Positions 9,122 to 19,123 are shown, counted from the first letter of the stretch. The stretch: DNA of 64,000 nucleotides from Spirochaetia bacterium (GCA_963677925.2 CAXXYH010000004.1:32001-96000); one strand, 5' to 3'. Notes: generated by a model from the letters alone, not told the origin. Made by a program: numbers and translations.

Positions 9122-9487
9122 ATGCTTACTATCCTTACAGAAATTTTTATTATATTCACAATAGCTTCCGCGGGTATGCTTGCATCACTAATTCCCGGCT
9201 TTCCATTTCCGGGACCTGTTGCCGGTATGCTGATAATGGCGGTTCTGCTTGTTACCGGAATTCTCGATCTTAAAAAGATTCATAGGACAGCAGATTTTTT
9301 CACGGCATCTCTTCCGCTTTTTTTTATACCGCTTATCATCAATCTTATGAAAGAAACCGAGATACTTGGAAAATACGGACTGAAGATCAGCCTCATTGTC
9401 ATTATTTCAACTGTACTCACCATGGCAGTGACAGCCCTTACAGTCAGCCTGCTCTTCAGACTTTCCGCCCAAAAGGATAAAAGCTGA
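9122..9487 (+). CDS. lrgA: CidA/LrgA family holin-like membrane protein
   Basis: PFPGPVAGM, LPLFFIP, four TM segments; coupled to LrgB. Confidence 0.85.
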   Translation: MLTILTEIFIIFTIASAGMLASLIPGFPFPGPVAGMLIMAVLLVTGILDLKKIHRTADFFTASLPLFFIPLIINLMKETEILGKYGLKISLIVIISTVLTMAVTALTVSLLFRLSAQKDKS

Positions 9488-10179
9488 TGGAAGCATTTTT
9501 TTCTTCACCGCTTTTCGGAATAACAATAACACTTGCTGCCTATACCCTGGCCAGAGCAATCTACCTTAAGTTCTCTCTGTCTTTTCTGCATCCGGTAATA
9601 ACCGGTTCTGCATTTATCATTATATTTCTGTTTCTGACAGGAATATCGCTTGAAAACTATCAGCGCGGCGGAACAATAATTTCTTTTATGCTTATTCCGG
9701 CAACAGTATCACTTGCAGTTCCCCTGTACAGACAGTTCCACATTCTAAAAAGACATGCTGCAATTCTTATTGCTGGCATATTTGCCGGTTCATTAACATC
9801 GATATTCAGTGTTATTCTACTTTCAAAAGTGTTCGGCCTGCCTGAAGAACTGATGCTTTCACTGGTTCCCAAATCTGTCACAACGCCTATTGCAGTGGAA
9901 ATCTCTGCAGGAATCGGAGGTCTGCCTTCAATCACAGCTCTGTCGGTAATAATTACCGGGATTCTCGGCGCCATAATTGGCCCCGGACTGCTTGGAATCC
10001 TTAAAATCAGAAACGCGACATCCAGGGGAATTGCAATGGGAACGGCTGCTCACGCTATAGGAACCTCCAGAGCCCTGGAGCTGGGCGAAACAGAGGGAGC
10101 AATGAGCAGCCTTGCTATCGGAATGGCGGGACTGGTTACAGTACTTATTGCTCCGCTAATTATTTCAATTCTGCCTTAA
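9487..10179 (+). CDS. lrgB: LrgB family membrane protein
   Basis: PATVSLAVPLY, PKSVTTPIA, GTAAHAIGT. Confidence 0.92.
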   Translation: MEAFFSSPLFGITITLAAYTLARAIYLKFSLSFLHPVITGSAFIIIFLFLTGISLENYQRGGTIISFMLIPATVSLAVPLYRQFHILKRHAAILIAGIFAGSLTSIFSVILLSKVFGLPEELMLSLVPKSVTTPIAVEISAGIGGLPSITALSVIITGILGAIIGPGLLGILKIRNATSRGIAMGTAAHAIGTSRALELGETEGAMSSLAIGMAGLVTVLIAPLIISILP

Positions 10180-11482
10180 GCTCACGGCCGCGTTCTTCCA
10201 TCAGCTCAAGCATCTCTTTCCGGTCTTTGTTAATGGAAAAAATAACACCTATAAAAAGAAGGCTGCAGAGGAACCAGAAACTTATTGCCATATTCACCAT
10301 CAGACCGTAGCTTGAAGTTGCGGCAAGTACCGCACCGCCGATAGCAGGACCAAAGCCCTTTCCGATATTATCAGTAAGATTAAAAACCGCAAAGACCGAA
10401 CCGCGGTGCTCAGGTCGGTTCACATTCATCAGCATAGCCTTGTTATTACTTGAAGCCGTAGCAATACAGGCTCCTCCCAGCAGACTTAAAGCCATTACAA
10501 TAACCGGTGATGAAAAAGGAATATTGAAGAATATAAAACAGGGAATAGTTCCTGCCATTATTCCGATTGTACACAGAAGCGGAAGGTATGAAGGCTTTTT
10601 TGAAAAAAGCTTATCACCGATAAAGGCCCAGAAAAGTCCTCCGGTTACAACGCCTACGCCGAAGAGCTCCCATATGAGGGTTGCTTCAGCCTGACCCATT
10701 CCCTGAGTCTCCCGGAAAAAAGTAATAACCCAGAACGTAAGAATACCCCAGGGGATAGTTCCGGGAATTCCCTGAAGAAACAGAAAAAGATTTGTCCGCT
10801 TTTTAAGGACATGCCTGAAATCAGAAAGCTTGATTTTATGGTTGTATTCAGCACCTGAATGAAGCGCTTCAGCAAGAGCCTTCTCCGACGAGCCGCGTTC
10901 CGGAGATCGGGCAATCAGTCCGAAGAGCAGAACAACTGGAAAGTTGGGAACAGCAGCAAGTATGAATGCAAGCCGCCAGCCGTAGCCGGAAGCCAGGCCG
11001 ATGTTTGCCATGATGGGGCCGACCATTGTACCAAGCCCCCACGCTATATCAATAAACGCAACAGCTTTCGCCCGGTGCCTGTCAGTAAAGTAGTCGGAAA
11101 CCAGACTGAAAAGAAGCGGATATATTCCGCCTACCCCTATACCGGTAAGTATTCTCATAATTACATATCCCTGAAAGCTGGCAGTAAAAAACTTAATACC
11201 GGTCAGGAAGCAGGGAATCTCGCCAATAAGAACAACCGCCATAAGCAGCTGCTTTCTGGCGGATTTATCTGAAAAGTATCCGAATATGATACTAAGAGCC
11301 GCTCCTAATAAAGTGAAAGCCGAAGCAACATAACTGATTGAAGCATTGGGAACACCGTATTCCGCAGCAAGCTCAGGGACGATGGCAGGTGTAATATAAA
11401 GATCGCATTGCAAGAAGAAGGACATAAGGACCATCAGGCCCAGGGTTACTTTATCTCTTGAACCAAGTTTAAATTCAGACAT
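10160..11482 (-). CDS. MFS transporter
   Basis: About 12 hydrophobic segments, motif A GYFSDKSARK, RILTGIGVGG. Confidence 0.88.
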   Translation of the reverse strand: MSEFKLGSRDKVTLGLMVLMSFFLQCDLYITPAIVPELAAEYGVPNASISYVASAFTLLGAALSIIFGYFSDKSARKQLLMAVVLIGEIPCFLTGIKFFTASFQGYVIMRILTGIGVGGIYPLLFSLVSDYFTDRHRAKAVAFIDIAWGLGTMVGPIMANIGLASGYGWRLAFILAAVPNFPVVLLFGLIARSPERGSSEKALAEALHSGAEYNHKIKLSDFRHVLKKRTNLFLFLQGIPGTIPWGILTFWVITFFRETQGMGQAEATLIWELFGVGVVTGGLFWAFIGDKLFSKKPSYLPLLCTIGIMAGTIPCFIFFNIPFSSPVIVMALSLLGGACIATASSNNKAMLMNVNRPEHRGSVFAVFNLTDNIGKGFGPAIGGAVLAATSSYGLMVNMAISFWFLCSLLFIGVIFSINKDRKEMLELMEERGRELKAELK

Positions 11483-11552: not shown

Positions 11553-11584
11553 TAAAGAAAGGCTCCGCCGGTATAGCGGAGCCT
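11553..11584 (-). terminator. Intrinsic terminator of the ECF/caspase operon
   Basis: AGGCTCCGC-7 nt-GCGGAGCCT stem with a T-rich tail on the minus strand. Confidence 0.7.
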
Positions 11585-11611: not shown

Positions 11612-14065
11612 CTAAAGCCTGACCCCAAGAAAAAAGGATGGAAAAACTTCCATTGTATTATAGCTGTCAAAATCAACCTGCATCATAGGCTGGCCGGAAT
11701 TGAATGAAGATATGCTTGAACCGAGGTCGTAACTGACGCCGCTCTCATTTCCGAAGAGATGAAAGTCCCAGTTCACACCGGCGAATATAGACATTGAACC
11801 GAAGAGCTTGAATCCGCCGCTTAATCTTGCTGCAGGATAATAGTCTGCAGTGCCCTCAAAAACACTCTTAACATTATTCTCTACGCTGCCCATACCGTAT
11901 CCGACGGCCTTGGCATAGATGTCCATGTCAAAATAAAGTCTTTCACCGCCGATTTCCAGGCCCATTCCAAGACCCAAAGTGGACGCAAGCTCGGGAGTTT
12001 CGCTGTGATATCCAAAGTTCATGAATGTATAAACTGAAGAGGTCCCAAGCTGGTAGCTGATGTTTCCAAAACCGAGGTCGTCCCAGGAGAATGAAACATC
12101 GTTCAGTCCGTTTCCGCTTATATTTATAAGACCTATAGGCAGTCCGTAGAGCTCATCGCTGATATTGACAAGACCTACCTGGAGGCCGTAAACCTTTCCG
12201 CCGAAGTTGAAAAGTCCTGCCTGAAAACCATTAACATTCTCAGCTACGTTGAAAATACCTGCACCCTGAGCACCGTAAACATTGCCCTCTGCAATATTGA
12301 ATATTCCTGAAAGCTGAAGACCTCTGACATCACGTTCTGCAACATTAAAGATTCCGGCAGCCTGCAGGAAGGCAACATCCCTTGCAGAGTTCCATATGCC
12401 GGATATCTGTGCACCCATCACATCCATTTCTGTGGCATTCCATATACCTGAAATCTGAAAACCGTCCACATTATCATCAGCGGAACTGAATATGCCGCCT
12501 ATCTGAAAACCGTCAACAGTTCCTGATGTCTCTGCAAATATTCCGCCAATCTGAAAGCCCTTCATGCTTTTTTCAGTAGTCGCACCAATGAGCCCCAGCT
12601 GTATACCTGATACATCTTTCTCTGATGCAACAAAGCCGAGTGAAAATTTAGCAGGATCATAATCAGGGGCTTTTTCTCTGTCAGAAGAAGCAGTAGAGGA
12701 GCTGTCTGAGGCGGCAATATACGCATCGCCGGTTTCTCGCTGAACGTTTATAAGAACGGTTTCATCTGGAGCGGAATCATTATTATCGTTGATGGAAGCT
12801 TCACCGGAGCTTTCACTCATGCCGGCGGCTTCAAGCGCCCTTCTCCGTGCACGTTCTGCAATTTCATCCAGCTCAGAGGCTGTTCTTGAAATGTCATCTT
12901 CACCGTTTACAGAAGCAGTTTCTTCAGTCAACGCCGGTGCTGGCAGGGTATCAACAGCAACAAATGTTCCTCCGCGTGATGTTGTCACCTTGCCCGGAAC
13001 CGGGTAAAACTCATCTTTCTGTACAATAACCTTGGCTCCGCCGGAAAGCATCAGGTCTGCGGAAAGCAGCTGATCACCGTCGTCGAGAATCATTGAATAT
13101 CTTCCGGGTGCAATTGAAACAGCAAGCGGAGCACCCTCTATTTTTTTCAGCTCAACGACAAGGCGGCCTGCGCTGTCCCGTACAAAAATCCGGCCGCGGA
13201 GATTCTTTTCAAACATTATCTGTTCAGAAACTTCTCTCAGATCGGTAAGGATAAGTTCTCCGGTTCCGGCAAGCTGGATATCATATGAAGGATGCTGGGG
13301 GCCGGCAAGGGTATCTTCTGTTCTTGCCAGAGTTTCAGCAGCCGCATATGAATAAGCCTCATTAAGAGTTACAGTACCGTCAAAGGTGCTGTCGGCAGCG
13401 CCCCTGAGCGCAGTGATTAAATAATGCGTGAAGAAAGAGGCACCGAGGTCATCAGATTCCTGGGCAGCTTCATCTTCCGAACTTGAAGTCAGGAAGGCGT
13501 GTCCTGAAGCGTCCACTGATTCATCGGATAGAAAGGGGGATCTTCTTACACCACCCTTCATTCGGGTGAAAGCTCCTGATGAGCAGGAGTCGAGAACTGC
13601 AATATTTACATCAGCACCGACAGAATCAATAAGTTCCTTAAGATCTTCATACTTCATTACCGAGTCGCCGAGCAGAAGACCCTTTTCATCTGAATGACCA
13701 GAATAATAGAAGAAAAACTCGGAACGCTTTACTTCGGTATCGTTGCTCACATTTCTTTTTAGGGTGGAAATTGTATCTTTAAGAAGGGCCGGTGACGGAT
13801 CTGTTAAAACAATACCGTCGGCAGGCATTACACCGCCGAGCCGCTGCATAACATCAGAAAGAGCCCTTGCATCAGTTACAGCATATGAAAGGGTTACTCT
13901 TTCGTGACCGCCGTAATTGGAGCCTACATACACTGCGTATCTTCTCATAACTGAGGTTTGTGCAGAGGCGCCTGCCGCTGATACAAGAAAAAGCAGGCAT
14001 ATAAATCCGATTATACTTATCTGAAGAAGCATCTTCTTCAGGACATCTTTTACAAGGCTTTTCAT
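11612..14065 (-). CDS. Exported caspase-family (peptidase C14) protease with C-terminal Gly-rich repeats and putative beta-barrel/anchor region
   Basis: Signal peptide (..GASA-Q); FYYSGHS (His) and VLDSCSSG (Cys) dyad; AQES...SFFTH; ~11 GxQ(I/L)xG(I/L)(F/W)N repeats; ends FFLGVRL. Confidence 0.85.
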   Translation of the reverse strand: MKSLVKDVLKKMLLQISIIGFICLLFLVSAAGASAQTSVMRRYAVYVGSNYGGHERVTLSYAVTDARALSDVMQRLGGVMPADGIVLTDPSPALLKDTISTLKRNVSNDTEVKRSEFFFYYSGHSDEKGLLLGDSVMKYEDLKELIDSVGADVNIAVLDSCSSGAFTRMKGGVRRSPFLSDESVDASGHAFLTSSSEDEAAQESDDLGASFFTHYLITALRGAADSTFDGTVTLNEAYSYAAAETLARTEDTLAGPQHPSYDIQLAGTGELILTDLREVSEQIMFEKNLRGRIFVRDSAGRLVVELKKIEGAPLAVSIAPGRYSMILDDGDQLLSADLMLSGGAKVIVQKDEFYPVPGKVTTSRGGTFVAVDTLPAPALTEETASVNGEDDISRTASELDEIAERARRRALEAAGMSESSGEASINDNNDSAPDETVLINVQRETGDAYIAASDSSSTASSDREKAPDYDPAKFSLGFVASEKDVSGIQLGLIGATTEKSMKGFQIGGIFAETSGTVDGFQIGGIFSSADDNVDGFQISGIWNATEMDVMGAQISGIWNSARDVAFLQAAGIFNVAERDVRGLQLSGIFNIAEGNVYGAQGAGIFNVAENVNGFQAGLFNFGGKVYGLQVGLVNISDELYGLPIGLINISGNGLNDVSFSWDDLGFGNISYQLGTSSVYTFMNFGYHSETPELASTLGLGMGLEIGGERLYFDMDIYAKAVGYGMGSVENNVKSVFEGTADYYPAARLSGGFKLFGSMSIFAGVNWDFHLFGNESGVSYDLGSSISSFNSGQPMMQVDFDSYNTMEVFPSFFLGVRL
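12115..12610 (-). repeat. Coding tandem repeats (~13-17 aa units, GFQIGGIF/GAQISGIWN type; LA_2272-like surface repeat)
   Basis: GIQLGLIG, GFQIGGIF x2, GFQISGIWN, GAQISGIWN, LQAAGIFN, GLQLSGIFN, GAQGAGIFN, GFQAGLFN, GLQVGLVN, GLPIGLIN. Confidence 0.8.
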
Positions 14066-14856
14066 CTTTCAGCCCCCTTCTTTAATAAGATTGTTGTCTG
14101 GTAGTATTCTTCAGGGATATCAAGAAAACTACGTCTTGCCGAACTGTTTGATGAAGCCAGCTCATAAGCTGCGTCAAGAACTTCATCGGCATTGAACCAG
14201 TCTCCTCCGGCTATAAAGAAGAATCTTTCAAATTCCGGAGCATCATCAAGCTCATAGGCATACGGCAGAAGAACAGCCCCGTTGTTATCGAGCTCTGGTT
14301 TTATTCCGCTGTATGAGGGATAGTGCATGGTAACAGTACCCCGTCCGTCGATTGAAAAAATCAGGCCGTACCTGTAGCCGCCGGCAATGTATTCAATCTG
14401 CAGAAGATCCTTTTCGGCAACGGTGTCCCTGTTTTCAAGGATTTCAGCAGAACCGCTGAGGCTCCGGTATATTTTAAGAGAGGGCTTCATGCCCTTAATT
14501 CTTTCAGTTGCATTTACATCCGGAGTCGCTCCTGTTCCGCCTGTGCTCACCGGAGCGTTGAAAAAACTGAATCCGAATATAACAACAACCGCTGCAGCGG
14601 CTGCCAGGGCAGAAATCCGGAAAACCGGAAACTTCAGAATCTTTGAGCCATTGCTTTGTTCACTTCTTTCCTTAATTGAATCAACTGCCTCATCTACGGG
14701 AAATTTTTTAAAGAAATCTTTATCTGAGTCATCCAGTTCTCTCAGGAGTCTTTCAAGTTCATTCGGATCTTCAAAACTGTCTTCGAACCGCTTTTTTTCT
14801 TCATCTTTCAGTTCGCCCAGTTTGTATTGCTCAAGAAACAGCTTTCCAGGTTTCAT
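14062..14856 (-). CDS. Putative membrane anti-sigma factor with extracytoplasmic DUF4384-like domain
   Basis: N-terminal LEQYKLGEL helix, single TM (ALAAAAAVVVIFGF), then RIKG and a beta-rich domain (DLLQIEY, IFSIDGRG..MHYP, LDDAP.FERFF); directly downstream of ECF sigma. Confidence 0.7.
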   Translation of the reverse strand: MKPGKLFLEQYKLGELKDEEKKRFEDSFEDPNELERLLRELDDSDKDFFKKFPVDEAVDSIKERSEQSNGSKILKFPVFRISALAAAAAVVVIFGFSFFNAPVSTGGTGATPDVNATERIKGMKPSLKIYRSLSGSAEILENRDTVAEKDLLQIEYIAGGYRYGLIFSIDGRGTVTMHYPSYSGIKPELDNNGAVLLPYAYELDDAPEFERFFFIAGGDWFNADEVLDAAYELASSNSSARRSFLDIPEEYYQTTILLKKGAER

Positions 14857-14859
14857 AGA

Positions 14860-15336
14860 TTATTCCTCCTTAAGCGCAAGACCCCTCTCACGGAGGCCCC
14901 TTAGCCTTTTTCGGACACCGGAAACGGACATGTTCAAAACACGTGCTGTTTCTTCAAGGGTATAACCCTCAACATAATGCAGCACAGCCATTGTCCTTGT
15001 AGATTCTTTTTCAAGACTGAAAAGCTGTTCAAGAAAATGGTTTGTCAGTACTATTCTCTCATGACTTTCAGTCCCTACAGCGGTTTCAATTATCTCATTA
15101 CCGCTGTCTACAAGACGGTTGACTTTACGGAGTTCATTAAGACAGACGTTTGTAGCTATAGTATACAGAAGGCTTGATGGAGCTCTGTCGTCGAGTGAGT
15201 CTGCTTTTCTGAGTACCTTCACAAATACTTCCTGCATGGCGTCATAGGCGCGATCTTCATCATTTAGAAGCGATTTGCAGCGCCTGAATACCATGGGACC
15301 GTATTTTCTGTAAAATTGTTCTACGTCAATCTTCAA
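14860..15336 (-). CDS. ECF RNA polymerase sigma factor
   Basis: Region 2 (AYDAMQEVFVK...LYTIATNVCLN) and region 4 HTH (GYTLEETARVLNMSVSGVRKRL); 158 aa. Confidence 0.92.
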   Translation of the reverse strand: MKIDVEQFYRKYGPMVFRRCKSLLNDEDRAYDAMQEVFVKVLRKADSLDDRAPSSLLYTIATNVCLNELRKVNRLVDSGNEIIETAVGTESHERIVLTNHFLEQLFSLEKESTRTMAVLHYVEGYTLEETARVLNMSVSGVRKRLRGLRERGLALKEE

Positions 15337-15368
15337 TGAAATCCGTCCCTTTCCATTGTCTATCTATT

Positions 15369-15397
15369 GAACACCATGAAAAGGCTGTGCTGTTACC
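15369..15397 (-). promoter_or_regulatory. Candidate autoregulatory ECF promoter
   Basis: Minus strand GGTAAC, 17 nt spacer, GTGTTC in the 68-bp gap between the parC stop and the ECF start. Confidence 0.4.
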
Positions 15398-15404
15398 GGA
15401 TTCA

Positions 15405-17327
15405 CTATTTTTTTGACTTTTTTTTCACAAACTTGGCGCTCTTTATCTCTTTTGCTGAAAGTCTGACTCCGGCAGCCTTAACACCCTTAACAAGATAGCC
15501 CGAAACGTCGAAACTTTCATCCAGAACCTTCAATCTCGGCTTTTCTTTATAGGTAACAGCGGCCTCAACATCCTCTTTGGTTGTAAGTTTGATTATTTTA
15601 TTTCCCTCGGGAATCAGTTCATATGATTTATCAAGTATGAACTTCTCAATCTTACAGCGCTTCAGATGGGCATAGCCTGTTTTATTGTTTTTATAAAGGA
15701 TACTGAAGACCGTTTCTGCCATCTCATCCTTGTCGGCAAGTCCGCAGAAAAGCAGACCCTTGTCTACAAAGAGCTTATCGGGCACGTCGATAACAGAGTA
15801 GACACCGCTTGCCCTTATAACCAGAATACGATCGTAGTTTGATACATTAAAAAGTGTCTTGCCCGATTTAACATCGTAACCGAGATAACCTGTATTGTCA
15901 TCATATGCCAGATTCAGGTTTCTCTGCGCAACCTCGCGGACGTCCACCTTATCAAAAGAAATAACCTCTGTTTTTCGTTTCTGCTCTTCGACAACCCCCT
16001 GAAGAAGGACATCGATAAAAGATACAGCATACTCGGTTATATGCCGCAGATGATGTCTAACTTCCTTCAGCCTTGCCTGAAGCTGGGCCATTTCATCCCT
16101 GGCCTTGTTGATGTCATAAAGCGAGATTCTCCGGATAGGAATTTTAAGCAGTCTTTCAACATCATCCTCGGTAACTTCACGTTTTATTTCATCCATATAG
16201 GGTTCAAATCCCTTGATAACTGTACTGATTACACCGTCTTTGGTTTTCATCGTTTCAATACGTTTATAGATTCTTTCCTCTATGAAAATTCTTTCAAGGG
16301 TTCTTGCATGTATCTTATCAAGAAGTCCGCGTTCCTCAAGCTTCAGCTCATCACGCAGAACTTCAACAATCTGCCCGGCATAATACTTGATAATCTCGGT
16401 GACAGTCATAATGACAGGCAGACCTTTGCGGATAACCAGAAGGTTGACCGATATTGAAACCTCGCAGTCGGTAAATGCATAGAGTGAATCCACAACCTCT
16501 TCGGTATGAACTCCGCGGGCAAGCTTTATTTCAATCTCGGCCTTTTCGGTTGTGAAGTCGGTAATACTTGAAACCTTAATCTTGTTCTGTCTGGCGGCGG
16601 TCTCAATCGAGTTCATAAGCGACTCGGTTGTTGTTCCGAAGGGTATCTCGCGGATAACTATGCGCTTCTCATCGGAAGTATCAAGTTTGGCACGGACAAG
16701 AACCTTTCCATTGCCGTCTTCATAGTTGGAGACATCAACATAGCCGCCTGTGGGAAAATCAGGGTAAAGCTTGAAGGCCTTTCCCTGAAGGCAGGATTTT
16801 ACAGCACCAAGAACTTCTTCATAGTTATGCGGCAGAATCTTTGTGGACATACCTACCGCGATTCCTTCTGCACCGTGAATCAGAATTACCGGAATCTTTG
16901 CTCTGAAGGCGATCGGCTCCTTATTTCTTCCGTCATATGAATCGGTGTACTCTGTAATTTCGGGATTGTAGAGAACCCTCTTTGCCAGCGGAAGAGCCCG
17001 GCACTCAATATACCTCGCAGCAGACGCCGGGTCGCCGGTCAGAATATTGCCGAAGTTTCCCTGTTTGTCTACAAACAGTTCCTTGTTGGCAAGCACTACA
17101 AGAGCTGAATAAATGGAAGCATCGCCATGGGGATGGTATTTCATACAGTGGCCTACAACATTTGCAACCTTATGAAATTTACCGTCATCCATTTCAAACA
17201 GTGAATGAATTATTCTCCGCTGTACAGGTTTAAGTCCGTCCTGCAGGTCAGGAATAGCCCTGTCCTTGATTACGTAAGATGCATATTCAAGAAAATTATC
17301 GTTAAAAAGTTTTTTTACGTATGACAT
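15405..17327 (-). CDS. parC: DNA topoisomerase IV subunit A (short spirochaete-type)
   Basis: DGLKPVQRR, YHPHGD, catalytic AARYIE, GIAVGM; short CTD with no GyrA box seen. Confidence 0.9.
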   Translation of the reverse strand: MSYVKKLFNDNFLEYASYVIKDRAIPDLQDGLKPVQRRIIHSLFEMDDGKFHKVANVVGHCMKYHPHGDASIYSALVVLANKELFVDKQGNFGNILTGDPASAARYIECRALPLAKRVLYNPEITEYTDSYDGRNKEPIAFRAKIPVILIHGAEGIAVGMSTKILPHNYEEVLGAVKSCLQGKAFKLYPDFPTGGYVDVSNYEDGNGKVLVRAKLDTSDEKRIVIREIPFGTTTESLMNSIETAARQNKIKVSSITDFTTEKAEIEIKLARGVHTEEVVDSLYAFTDCEVSISVNLLVIRKGLPVIMTVTEIIKYYAGQIVEVLRDELKLEERGLLDKIHARTLERIFIEERIYKRIETMKTKDGVISTVIKGFEPYMDEIKREVTEDDVERLLKIPIRRISLYDINKARDEMAQLQARLKEVRHHLRHITEYAVSFIDVLLQGVVEEQKRKTEVISFDKVDVREVAQRNLNLAYDDNTGYLGYDVKSGKTLFNVSNYDRILVIRASGVYSVIDVPDKLFVDKGLLFCGLADKDEMAETVFSILYKNNKTGYAHLKRCKIEKFILDKSYELIPEGNKIIKLTTKEDVEAAVTYKEKPRLKVLDESFDVSGYLVKGVKAAGVRLSAKEIKSAKFVKKKSKK

Positions 17328-19123
17328 CAGATAAGGTTCTCCATAATAAAGCTTCGCCTCTGGGGTGTGTTCTTACCCATGAAAAACTCAAGTGTATTCG
17401 GAACATCCTTCATCGTTTTCACATCGACTTTAACCAGCCGCATATCCTCACCGATGAACTGACCGAATTCTTTTGGAGAAATTTCACCGAGTCCCTTAAA
17501 TCGTGTAACCTCGGGTCCTGCAAGTTTGGCCATTGCAGCATCACGTTCTGCAATATTGTAGCAGTAGTGGGTTTCTTTCTTGTTTCTTACCCTGAAAAGC
17601 GGAGTCTCAAGGATATAGATACGTCCTGCGGTTGCAAGTTCCTCAAAGAAGGTGAGAAAGAATGTAAGCAGAAGATTCCGGATATGAAAACCGTCATTAT
17701 CTGCATCAGTTGCGATTATCAGTTTGCCGTAGCGGAGGTTGTCAATTTCATTCTCAACTCCAAGGGCCATCATCAGATTGTAAAGCTCTTCATTTTTATA
17801 GATTGCCGCCCGCTTCTTTCCGAATACATTGAACGGCTTACCGCGAAGTGAAAAAACTGCCTGCCTGTAGACATCCCGGGCAGAGACTATTGAGCCAGAT
17901 GCAGACTGACCCTCGGTGATGAAGATCATCGATTCTTCACCCTTCTTGTCACCCAGATGAAATTTACAGTCTTTCAGATTGGGAATCTTAAGCGCAACTT
18001 TTTTGGCTGCCTCACGGGCTTCCTTCTTTACTTCATTAAGTTCCTTCCGCAGCTTTTCATTGCTGACAATCTTGTTCTCAAGCTTGTCGGCAGCTTCCTT
18101 ATTTTTGTGCAGATAGTCAACAACACCGGACCGGACTTCGTTTACAACCCAGGCCCTGATTTCAGTATTACCAAGCTTATTCTTCGTCTGGCTTTCAAAG
18201 ACCGGATTTTTAAGCTTTATTGAAACAGCACCGGCAAGGCCTTCACGGGCATCTACCCCGTTGTAGTTCTTCTTATAGAACTCGTTGACGCCCTTGAGAA
18301 AACCCTCGCGGAAGGCGCTCTGATGCGTACCGCCGTCGCTGGTGTACTGACCGTTTACAAAGGAGAAATAGTTCTCTCCGTAGGTGTTTGTGTGAGCAAA
18401 GGAAAACTCAAGCTGTTCGCCCTTGTAGTAACCGATATCATAAATGGTGGTATTCCCTACTTCTGCCGACAGAAGATCGAGAAGACCGTTCTGGGATTCG
18501 TATTTCTTTTTATTAAAATAAAGAGTCAGCCCGCTGTTCAGGTAGGCGTAATTCCATATACGCTGGTCTATGTATTCATGGTTGAATGTGTATTCACCAA
18601 AGATTTCTTTGTCCGGAATAAACTCAACATAGGTTCCGTCGGGCTCGCCGGCTTTCTTCCCCTCGCGCTTCTTCTGAAGGATTCCTCTTTCAAAGATTGC
18701 CTCAAAGAACTTGCCGTCACGGAACGAAACGACCCTGAAGTTTATAGAAAGAGCATTTACCGCCTTGGTACCGACACCGTTAAGGCCGACCGAAAACTGA
18801 AAGACGTCGTCATTGTATTTTGCACCTGTATTTATAATTGAAACACAATCAATAACCTTTCCAAGCGGAATACCCCGGCCGTAGTCACGAACTACAACCT
18901 TGTTGTCCTCAACCTTGATTACTATTTTCTTACCGTTGCCCATGATGAACTCATCAATACTGTTGTCAACAACTTCCTTCAGAAGGACGTATATACCGTC
19001 ATCAAGGTTTGAACCGTCTCCAAGGCGTCCGATATACATACCGGTACGCAGACGGATATGCTCAAGAGAGCTCAGCGTTTTTATCTTGCTTTCATCGTAT
19101 GCGGATTTCTTTTGTTTTGCCAT
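17327..19123 (-). CDS. parE: DNA topoisomerase IV subunit B
   Basis: EVVDNSIDE, DYGRGIP, GLNGVG, TOPRIM TEGQSA / LRGK / DADNDG, RFKGLGE. Confidence 0.9.
   Translation of the reverse strand: MAKQKKSAYDESKIKTLSSLEHIRLRTGMYIGRLGDGSNLDDGIYVLLKEVVDNSIDEFIMGNGKKIVIKVEDNKVVVRDYGRGIPLGKVIDCVSIINTGAKYNDDVFQFSVGLNGVGTKAVNALSINFRVVSFRDGKFFEAIFERGILQKKREGKKAGEPDGTYVEFIPDKEIFGEYTFNHEYIDQRIWNYAYLNSGLTLYFNKKKYESQNGLLDLLSAEVGNTTIYDIGYYKGEQLEFSFAHTNTYGENYFSFVNGQYTSDGGTHQSAFREGFLKGVNEFYKKNYNGVDAREGLAGAVSIKLKNPVFESQTKNKLGNTEIRAWVVNEVRSGVVDYLHKNKEAADKLENKIVSNEKLRKELNEVKKEAREAAKKVALKIPNLKDCKFHLGDKKGEESMIFITEGQSASGSIVSARDVYRQAVFSLRGKPFNVFGKKRAAIYKNEELYNLMMALGVENEIDNLRYGKLIIATDADNDGFHIRNLLLTFFLTFFEELATAGRIYILETPLFRVRNKKETHYCYNIAERDAAMAKLAGPEVTRFKGLGEISPKEFGQFIGEDMRLVKVDVKTMKDVPNTLEFFMGKNTPQRRSFIMENLI

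Follow-up and report, generated by a model that had tools for sequence, protein, structure and literature searches.

An operon encoding an extracytoplasmic function sigma factor, a candidate anti-sigma factor and an exported caspase-like protease: possible site-1 proteolysis in trans

Introduction

Why should an exported, caspase-like protease share an operon with a sigma factor of the extracytoplasmic function (ECF) type and a membrane-bound candidate anti-sigma factor? The question is raised by positions 11612 to 15397 of a stretch of 64 000 nucleotides of DNA (the window, from the first letter of which all coordinates are counted) from a Spirochaetia bacterium (GCA_963677925.2, CAXXYH010000004.1:32001-96000). 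Anti-sigma factors are known to be controlled by regulated intramembrane proteolysis, as in the sigmaE/RseA/DegS/RseP system of Escherichia coli and the sigmaW/RsiW/PrsW system of Bacillus subtilis. To our knowledge, ECF sigma factors form a major signalling class, the triggers of which are mostly unknown, and bacterial caspase homologues are numerous, with very few known to us that have a known substrate or role.

The three-gene module described here is real, widespread and apparently uncharacterised, and from its sequences it is plausible that regulated proteolysis controls the anti-sigma factor here, through a caspase-fold protease encoded in trans. The analysis shows the gene content and coupling, their conservation, the promoter motif, the fold of the protease with its catalytic dyad and S1 residues, and a Lys-Gly motif whose place and conservation could be followed in both the protease and the candidate anti-sigma factor. 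The sequences further suggest that the protease may be the dedicated site-1 protease of the anti-sigma factor of its own operon, within a positive-feedback loop, a reading to which we assign a probability of roughly 45%.

Results

A conserved operon of three coupled genes

14860..15336, minus strand: ECF (group 4) sigma factor, 158 aa, TTG start (Pfam and TIGR02937)
14062..14856, minus strand: single-pass anti-sigma candidate, 264 aa (AlphaFold2 model, position, weak NCBIfam matches)
11612..14065, minus strand: exported C14 (metacaspase-like) protease, 817 aa (Pfam, Foldseek, AlphaFold2)

Three minus-strand open reading frames were listed, at 15336-14860 for the sigma factor, 14856-14062 for the anti-sigma candidate and 14065-11612 for the protease. 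The stop codon of the sigma gene is separated from the anti-sigma ATG by 3 nt (TCT), with AAGGAGG just 5' of this junction gap, and the anti-sigma stop and the protease start overlap as ATGA; judged by these junctions, the three genes are translationally coupled in the window. The initial annotation, made from the DNA alone, had noted the same 3-bp gap and ATGA overlap, together with a candidate promoter, a terminator, an ECF sigma factor, a single-TM (transmembrane) protein with an extracytoplasmic domain and an 817-aa signal-peptide protein with an intact His/Cys dyad, all of which were borne out by the analyses given below.

Conservation of the triad had been set beforehand as a refuting test. 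With the protease as query against genomes of the same class (n=41 including the window's own; high-quality subset n=31), a match was obtained in 20 of the 41 genomes, the own genome included, and in 13 of the 31 high-quality ones. At 12/12 loci retrieved with the protease (tblastn), a set that includes the window's own locus and that of one 98-99% identical relative, the sigma and anti-sigma genes lay upstream in the same order. An alignment of the anti-sigma candidate was then scanned against one genome per species, giving 553 pattern matches, 517 of which encode a relative; the counts that follow refer to the best 80 of these 517, which were searched with hidden Markov models (HMMs) built from our own alignments. 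The full triad was present in 70 of these 80 loci, although they had been found with the anti-sigma candidate alone, and two of the ten misses were contig ends. A caspase domain was encoded directly downstream of the anti-sigma gene in 75/80 (misses: L025, at a contig end, L068, L069, L072 and L077), and a sigma gene upstream of it likewise in 75/80 (misses: L038, at a contig start, L058, L070, L090 and L095). Thus, since the same order is kept at 12/12 and at 70/80 loci, the gene set is conserved beyond chance.

The best 80 loci carry the labels Spirochaetota (including Leptospirales and Brevinematales), Myxococcota, Aminicenantes/Acidobacteria and Fibrobacterota, and also include one Ectothiorhodospiraceae metagenome-assembled genome (MAG) and some MAGs labelled Eubacteriales or Clostridia. 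The system is therefore not special to spirochaetes, with Myxococcota, Aminicenantes and other phyla carrying it too. Myxobacterial homologues of the protease number at least 120, and among the matches listed they bear names such as 'caspase family protein' and 'ICE-like protease'; these two names are also the only annotation of the Myxococcus xanthus homologue. The chromosome of Archangium minus has two more divergent triads (L097 and L098) and further caspase-domain paralogues, seven matches in total.

The sigma factor and the candidate anti-sigma factor

The sigma protein matched Sigma70_r2 (PF04542, E 4e-15), Sigma70_r4_2 (PF08281, E 6e-7) and PF07638 (E 9e-8), and scored 66.9 bits against TIGR02937, the cut-off of which is 42.9. 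It is a small protein with regions sigma2 and sigma4 only, as expected of the ECF (group 4) class, and all specific NCBIfam sigma models remained below their cut-offs for it. Its start region, TTGAAGATTGA, is kept in the relatives' loci L001-L008. In locus L023 (908-1410), sigma matches fell in two adjacent frames (106 and 65 aa), which may reflect a frameshifted MAG contig.

Two parts of the anti-sigma candidate were delimited as follows.

14560..14625, minus strand: transmembrane helix, residues 78-99 (AlphaFold2 helix; hydrophobic stretch FRISALAAAAAVVVIFGFSFF)
14077..14490, minus strand: extracytoplasmic beta-sandwich, DUF4384-like, residues 123-260 (PF14326 matches of homologues; AlphaFold2 strands 126-260)

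The AlphaFold2 model, with 39 homologues in the alignment, reached a mean predicted local distance difference test score (pLDDT) of 85.5. It places N-terminal helices at residues 5-12, 18-26, 31-51 and 54-69, followed by the single transmembrane helix, a linker (residues 99-119) that is disordered (pLDDT <50) and the beta-sandwich. Homologues collected numbered 357. PF14326 (DUF4384) was matched by 20 of the 39 aligned homologues at E<=1, the best at 1e-4, and one homologue carries the UniRef name 'DUF4384 domain-containing'. With the window protein, NCBIfam anti-sigma models reached E-values of 6e-4 to 2e-2, far short of their cut-offs, and weak matches among the 39 homologues were to zf-HC2 (one), RskA_N (one) and DUF3379 (three). 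Residues 1-75 hold neither Cys nor His, and the protein is therefore not a zinc-binding anti-sigma factor. A Foldseek search of the model against the PDB gave no matches at E<=0.001, the only hits being generic beta-sandwiches.

An exported metacaspase-like protease

13958..14065, minus strand: signal peptide region, residues 1-36 (basic N-region, hydrophobic core, ending ...GASA/QT)
13316..13948, minus strand: caspase/hemoglobinase-fold catalytic domain, residues 40-250 (PF00656, Foldseek, PDB profile search)
12998..13297, minus strand: beta-sandwich, residues 257-356 (AlphaFold2 strands; 'mid' HMM beside the caspase domain in related loci)
12653..12988, minus strand: long disordered acidic, Ser-rich linker, residues 360-471 (pLDDT <50 at 360-394 and 417-471)
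12116..12649, minus strand: LA_2272-type repeats, residues 473-650 (G-x-Q-x-x-G-(I/V)-F-N, period about 15-16 aa)
11615..12106, minus strand: C-terminal all-beta module, residues 654-817 (AlphaFold2 strands 654-816, pLDDT about 85-96)

The protease model (35 homologues in the alignment, mean pLDDT 78.1) opens with a helix at residues 2-33 and low confidence at 32-38, and the cleavage site of the signal peptide is a prediction. Peptidase_C14 (PF00656) was matched at residues 41-227 (E 2e-8; 34.4 bits against a cut-off of 21.4) and is present in all 35 homologues. The catalytic dyad consists of His124 (YYSGHSD, 13694-13696) and Cys161 (LDSCSSG, 13583-13585), both invariant in 35/35 aligned homologues, and the protein thus has the fold and the His-then-Cys dyad of Peptidase C14/clan CD. 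A search of the PDB with the protease family profile returned four matches, all of them metacaspases (best E 8.7e-5), and Foldseek ranked yeast Yca1 first (E 2.9e-6), then a Candida metacaspase, the MALT1 caspase-Ig3 structure and caspases, with E-values of 3e-6 to 1e-4 for Yca1, MALT1 and caspases. The MALT1 caspase-Ig3 alignment spans about 390-400 columns. The protease scored 60.3 bits against NF047832 (caspase, EACC1-associated type), below its cut-off of 140.

Two acidic residues do not vary in the protease alignment, namely Asp65 of helix alpha1 and Asp159, which stands two positions ahead of the catalytic Cys; they align with C-x-x-D and DSC of metacaspase-1. The catalytic Cys of TbMCA2 is residue 213. 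In a review, the S1 pocket proposed for TbMCA2 is formed by Cys92, Asp95, Ser156 and Asp211 (PMC4357240). With acidic S1 residues of the metacaspase type, a basic P1 residue is therefore expected, and by homology the protease should prefer Lys or Arg at this position.

The constant core of the protease in the related loci is the catalytic domain with the beta-sandwich that follows it. The repeat and C-terminal modules are encoded at 50 loci, 16 complete genes of about 530-700 aa lack them, and nine further genes are cut by contig ends; the short forms without repeats include two Aminicenantes-labelled and three 'Eubacteriales'-labelled loci. The linker holds one helix (residues 390-413) and its length is highly variable among homologues. 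In the window protein, NF047436 (LA_2272) was matched in three stretches at 49.2 bits (cut-off 25), with short beta strands in the model. Scattered single weak matches aside, the 35 homologues showed no Pfam family beyond Peptidase_C14. Judged from the all-beta model and the family name only, the C-terminal repeat/beta module of the window protein probably anchors the protease in the outer membrane; this insertion is something that we infer, because the C-terminal modules show no Pfam family and their Atlas neighbours are only unnamed or LA_2272-type clusters. In loci L054, L073 and L083 the protease is split into two overlapping frames, one catalytic and the other with the repeat/C-terminal part, possibly by a frameshift or a MAG assembly error.

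A Lys-Gly motif shared by the protease and the anti-sigma candidate

14491..14502, minus strand: R119-I-K121-G122 of the anti-sigma candidate, candidate site-1 cleavage motif (alignment; end of the disordered linker)
13550..13564, minus strand: R168-M-K170-G-G of the protease, candidate autoprocessing site (loop after the catalytic Cys)

The alignments of both proteins revealed the same short motif. In the anti-sigma candidate, R119, K121 and G122 are invariant in 39/39 aligned sequences and lie about 20 residues past the transmembrane helix in the AlphaFold2 model. In the protease, R168, K170, G171 and G172 are invariant in 35/35 aligned sequences, and the motif is found nine residues after Cys161, where a disordered loop begins (residues 170-184, pLDDT <50). 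In caspases, the intersubunit processing loop falls at about this position. The main argument for site-1 cleavage by this enzyme combines its expected Lys/Arg specificity, the Lys-Gly site within its activation-type loop and the recurrence of that site, at a fitting distance from the membrane, in the partner encoded by the same operon.

Variation of the Arg residue was followed across the related loci. Both motifs were parsed by regular expression in 65 of the 75 two-gene loci, the other ten being unparsed. The Arg was found in both proteins at 57 loci, in the anti-sigma candidate only at four, in the protease only at one and in neither at three (L078, L089 and L091), a co-variation for which Fisher's test gave p = 0.003, with loci counted without correction for kinship. 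When residues 36-360 of the protease and residues 100-264 of the anti-sigma candidate, each given as an alignment, were predicted as a complex, the score was 0.01, at which neither interaction nor its absence is called.

A promoter motif common to the relatives

15369..15396, minus strand: ECF-type promoter motif, GTAACA (15396-15391), N16, GTGTTC (15374-15369) (pattern match; relatives)

The promoter motif is placed in the 68-nt gap between a topoisomerase gene and the sigma gene, and the upstream regions of the sigma genes of relatives have GTAACA-N16-GTGTT(C/A) in common. The pattern GT[AG]ACA-N15-17-[GT]TGTT was searched over the 80 loci, within 250 nt before the sigma gene and, elsewhere, on both strands. 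It was found before sigma in 40/71 assessable loci, as against 18 matches elsewhere in 1.31 Mb of loci, and many of these 18 are not background. Each of the four sigma-less loci has the motif directly upstream of the anti-sigma-like gene that precedes the caspase gene. In Archangium minus, it lies both before a sigma and anti-sigma pair (L077) and before a separate anti-sigma and caspase pair (L096). From these placements the protease operon is therefore, by motif, a target of this type of sigma factor. Where sigma is encoded elsewhere, the protease keeps a DUF4384-like protein as its partner (4/4 loci; L096), and this strict pairing, together with the Lys-Gly motif that the two proteins share, favours a direct interaction between them.

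The motif occurs a second time at 11 loci, directed away from the sigma promoter region. In eight of these (L025, L039, L042, L045, L048, L052, L073 and L088) this copy, upstream of sigma on the opposite strand, precedes a gene for a protein of 181-206 aa with a signal peptide, rich in strands and with an aromatic/hydrophobic end, possibly a small outer-membrane barrel; this protein matched no Pfam family and, with one query, was not found in the window's own genome. Two loci with short-form proteases (L027, 7362-9524; L061, 4923-5873) have extra downstream genes that carry the middle beta-sandwich alone, and one such gene in each is preceded by the promoter motif.

In the own genome, the strict form GTAACA-N15-17-GTGTTM gave three matches as against one for the reversed control, and these are therefore too few to define a regulon. 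One match (L013, contig 3, 1501-2697) lies 10 nt before a gene for an 89-aa 2TM-domain protein, which is followed by a DUF4097 'toastrack' protein, and another (L015, contig 4, 3-1528) lies about 55 nt before a gene for an exported patatin-like phospholipase. By their upstream sequences, the 2TM/DUF4097 and patatin-like genes are possible members of the regulon.

Discussion

A proposed trans-envelope switch

The course of events that we propose would run as follows. In the resting state, the N-terminal helical domain of the anti-sigma candidate would hold the ECF sigma factor at the inner membrane. The protease, Sec-exported and presumably specific for Lys/Arg, would be tethered by its disordered linker of about 110 residues to the C-terminal repeat/beta module in the outer membrane, and the linker would let it reach the anti-sigma factor at the inner membrane. 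On an envelope cue, the zymogen would mature by a self-cut at R168-x-K170/G171, and the mature enzyme would then cut the anti-sigma factor at R119-x-K121/G122, about 20 residues outside the membrane, removing the DUF4384-like sensor domain. The remaining stub would be cleared by an RseP-type site-2 protease, and the sigma factor so released would transcribe its own operon, including the protease gene, from GTAACA-N16-GTGTTC, giving positive feedback. A Peptidase_M50 gene (RseP-type, PF02163) is present in the own genome (177.5 bits). What we infer is that sigma binds anti-sigma, that both cleavages take place and that the protease is anchored in the outer membrane, and likewise the cue and regulon. 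The scheme in full, in which an outer-membrane-tethered metacaspase-like protease is the site-1 protease of the co-encoded anti-sigma factor and uses the same Lys-Gly site for self-maturation in a self-amplifying trans-envelope switch, is more tentative than the site-1 role by itself.

If the protease does act as proposed, it would provide the first defined physiological substrate for bacterial C14 caspase homologues, in several phyla, and regulated intramembrane proteolysis would then also comprise clan CD cysteine proteases that are encoded in trans. The module offers concrete candidate substrate sites, at K121/G122 of the anti-sigma candidate and K170/G171 of the protease, and a dedicated promoter motif that is usable as a reporter.

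Weight of the evidence and other readings

Several observations weigh against site-1 cleavage by the protease. The Arg of the motif is not universal, R.KG being found in 76 of the 80 anti-sigma candidates and the other four keeping K-G without it; most proteases have R-x-K-G-G, with another residue in place of the Arg in eight and K-S in one. Since L089 and L091 are close kin, the three loci that lack the Arg in both proteins amount to only about two independent co-losses, and in either protein the role of the R/K motif might be a structural one. The partner itself is a candidate anti-sigma factor by position, architecture and sub-threshold HMM matches, and the window protein, in contrast to about half of its aligned relatives, matched neither PF14326 at E<=1 nor any other Pfam family. 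The presence of an RseP-type gene discriminates nothing, as Peptidase_M50 was found in 14/14 control genomes. In five of the 80 loci the sigma and anti-sigma genes occur without a caspase gene; one of these is cut by the contig, and the four complete ones are from Archangium or Vitiosangium, so that this type of anti-sigma factor can stand without an adjoining protease gene.

These four complete loci also speak for the protease being a regulated output rather than the trigger, a reading that we hold to be unlikely: the anti-sigma factor would sense the cue by its DUF4384-like domain and be processed by other proteases, and the sigma factor would raise the level of an outer-membrane-tethered caspase-like protease acting on other envelope substrates, in remodelling, quality control or cell death. 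The place of the protease in the sigma regulon suits such a role equally well, as it lies behind a sigma-dependent promoter in every arrangement, the sigma-less anti-sigma and caspase loci included; the small exported all-beta proteins behind the divergent motif of eight related loci suggest an envelope regulon; and the invariant dyad suits any proteolytic role. Against this, an output gene has no need to keep translational coupling to the anti-sigma gene across phyla (70/80), nor to have an anti-sigma-like partner directly upstream when sigma is elsewhere (4/4 loci; L096), and the Lys-Gly motif common to both proteins, with its partial co-variation, would be left unexplained. Should the protease nonetheless be an output, the module would define a sigma-controlled envelope caspase whose targets would be worth finding. 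It is distinctly improbable, in our estimate, that the protease instead acts like RseB, as a co-sensor or partner bound to the DUF4384-like domain, or that this domain is an inhibitor or docking site of the protease, with signalling by association and dissociation and any proteolysis directed at a third protein or at the protease itself. Such a partnership would agree with the strict pairing of DUF4384-like protein and caspase even without sigma, with the Ig-like domain beside the catalytic domain, like that of MALT1, and with the frequent fusion of DUF4384 to protease domains described in a preprint (bioRxiv 10.1101/2022.08.17.504292). The invariant dyad and S1 residues, however, argue from the alignment for real catalysis, and hhalign gave a probability of 0.2, thus no detected homology, for the middle domain of the protease against the sensor domain of the anti-sigma candidate; with the catalytic, repeat and C-terminal parts included, the probabilities were 0.2-1.7, again without detectable homology. 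That co-transcription is all that joins the three genes, without a direct link in function, is very hard to reconcile with the same order in 70/80 loci from several phyla and with the common promoter motif.

Relation to known systems

The DdvA/DdvS system of Myxococcus xanthus is the nearest published one. There, the periplasmic CHAT domain of DdvA is proposed as its own site-1 protease, cutting the juxtamembrane linker ahead of RseP (PMC11506125), and the system shares with the window an ECF sigma factor held by a single-pass anti-sigma factor and a caspase-fold His-Cys protease on the extracytoplasmic side. Site-1 cleavage is a proposal in both systems. In DdvA, a CHAT domain with TPR is fused to the anti-sigma factor, whereas the window encodes its C14 protease as a distinct protein, which carries a signal peptide and C-terminal repeat/beta modules of its own; in the window proteins and the 35 protease homologues, Pfam yielded neither CHAT nor TPR. 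DdvA has a zinc-binding N-terminal domain, in contrast to the Cys- and His-free residues 1-75 of the window protein, and controls a CBASS/CRISPR (cyclic-oligonucleotide-based anti-phage signalling system/clustered regularly interspaced short palindromic repeats) island, whereas the window operon is without such flanking genes. A DdvA-type anti-sigma factor, with TPR-CHAT fused, was considered for the window and is ruled out by the separate protease gene, the lack of CHAT and TPR and the lack of N-terminal Cys/His. Cleavage of the anti-sigma factor by the C14 protease, if real, would support the proposal made for DdvA.

The RseA and RsiW systems would be alike in the outside site-1 cut, the site-2 cut by an M50 protease, the release of sigma and autoregulation. 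DegS is a serine protease and PrsW a membrane metalloprotease, whereas the site-1 enzyme proposed here would be a clan CD cysteine protease; and as this protease is encoded in the sigma operon, the proposed trigger would be under positive feedback, unlike DegS and PrsW. Craspase offers another likeness, in that the caspase-fold protease Csx29 cuts Csx30, a partner that binds an ECF sigma factor, and some Csx30 C-terminal domains are DUF4384 (bioRxiv 10.1101/2022.08.17.504292). Craspase is cytoplasmic, RNA-guided, CRISPR-linked and of CHAT type, whereas the window protease is exported and of C14 type. Metacaspases and orthocaspases (Yca1, Candida MCA1, TbMCA2, Arabidopsis MC4/MC9) resemble the protease in fold, His-Cys dyad, DSC(H)SG, the Asp at Cys-2, the Asp on helix alpha1 and the basic P1 expected; sequence similarity is weak (best E as given above), and the window protein differs in being exported and in the Ig-like domain, disordered linker and LA_2272 repeats that follow its catalytic domain.

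For ECF54, carboxypeptidase, subtilase and CHAT proteins are described in the genetic context, with the proposal that a protease controls the ECF sigma factor; ECF54 is described there without an anti-sigma factor (PMC8999054), whereas the window module always has a membrane anti-sigma candidate. The main text of the ECF reclassification names no caspase, C14, DUF4384 or CHAT (PMC7826278), and its supplementary group tables may describe such context. The initial annotation knew of no characterisation of the system, and no published one of the triad was found, in a search that did not extend to supplements or to the bulk of subscription journals; for DdvA, on the other hand, an extracytoplasmic site-1 protease of caspase fold had already been proposed in the text cited above.

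The ends of the operon and its neighbours

11560..11584, minus strand: terminator-like hairpin (10-pair stem with 7 G-C, loop of 5, then TTCTTTACTT)

The terminator-like hairpin begins 28 nt past the protease stop, and a T-rich tail follows its stem. The G+C content is flat over the region (0.42-0.49), and no cas or CBASS/CRISPR genes were found among the annotated immediate neighbours of the operon. The chromosomal neighbours are ordinary, with type IIA topoisomerase B and A upstream, and an MFS (major facilitator superfamily) transporter, LrgA/LrgB and inositol monophosphatase downstream. The genes for the topoisomerase B subunit (598 aa) and A subunit (640 aa), at 15405-19123 on the minus strand, overlap at their stop and start, and 8 nt separate their end from the sigma promoter motif; the A subunit is shorter than expected of GyrA/ParC. 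LrgAB has been tied in other bacteria to murein hydrolase control and cell death. The LrgA/LrgB pair, at 9122-10179 on the plus strand (PF03788, E 3e-23; PF04172, E 3e-79), lies 3' of the caspase operon, and its end overlaps that of the convergent MFS transporter gene, at 10160-11482 on the minus strand.

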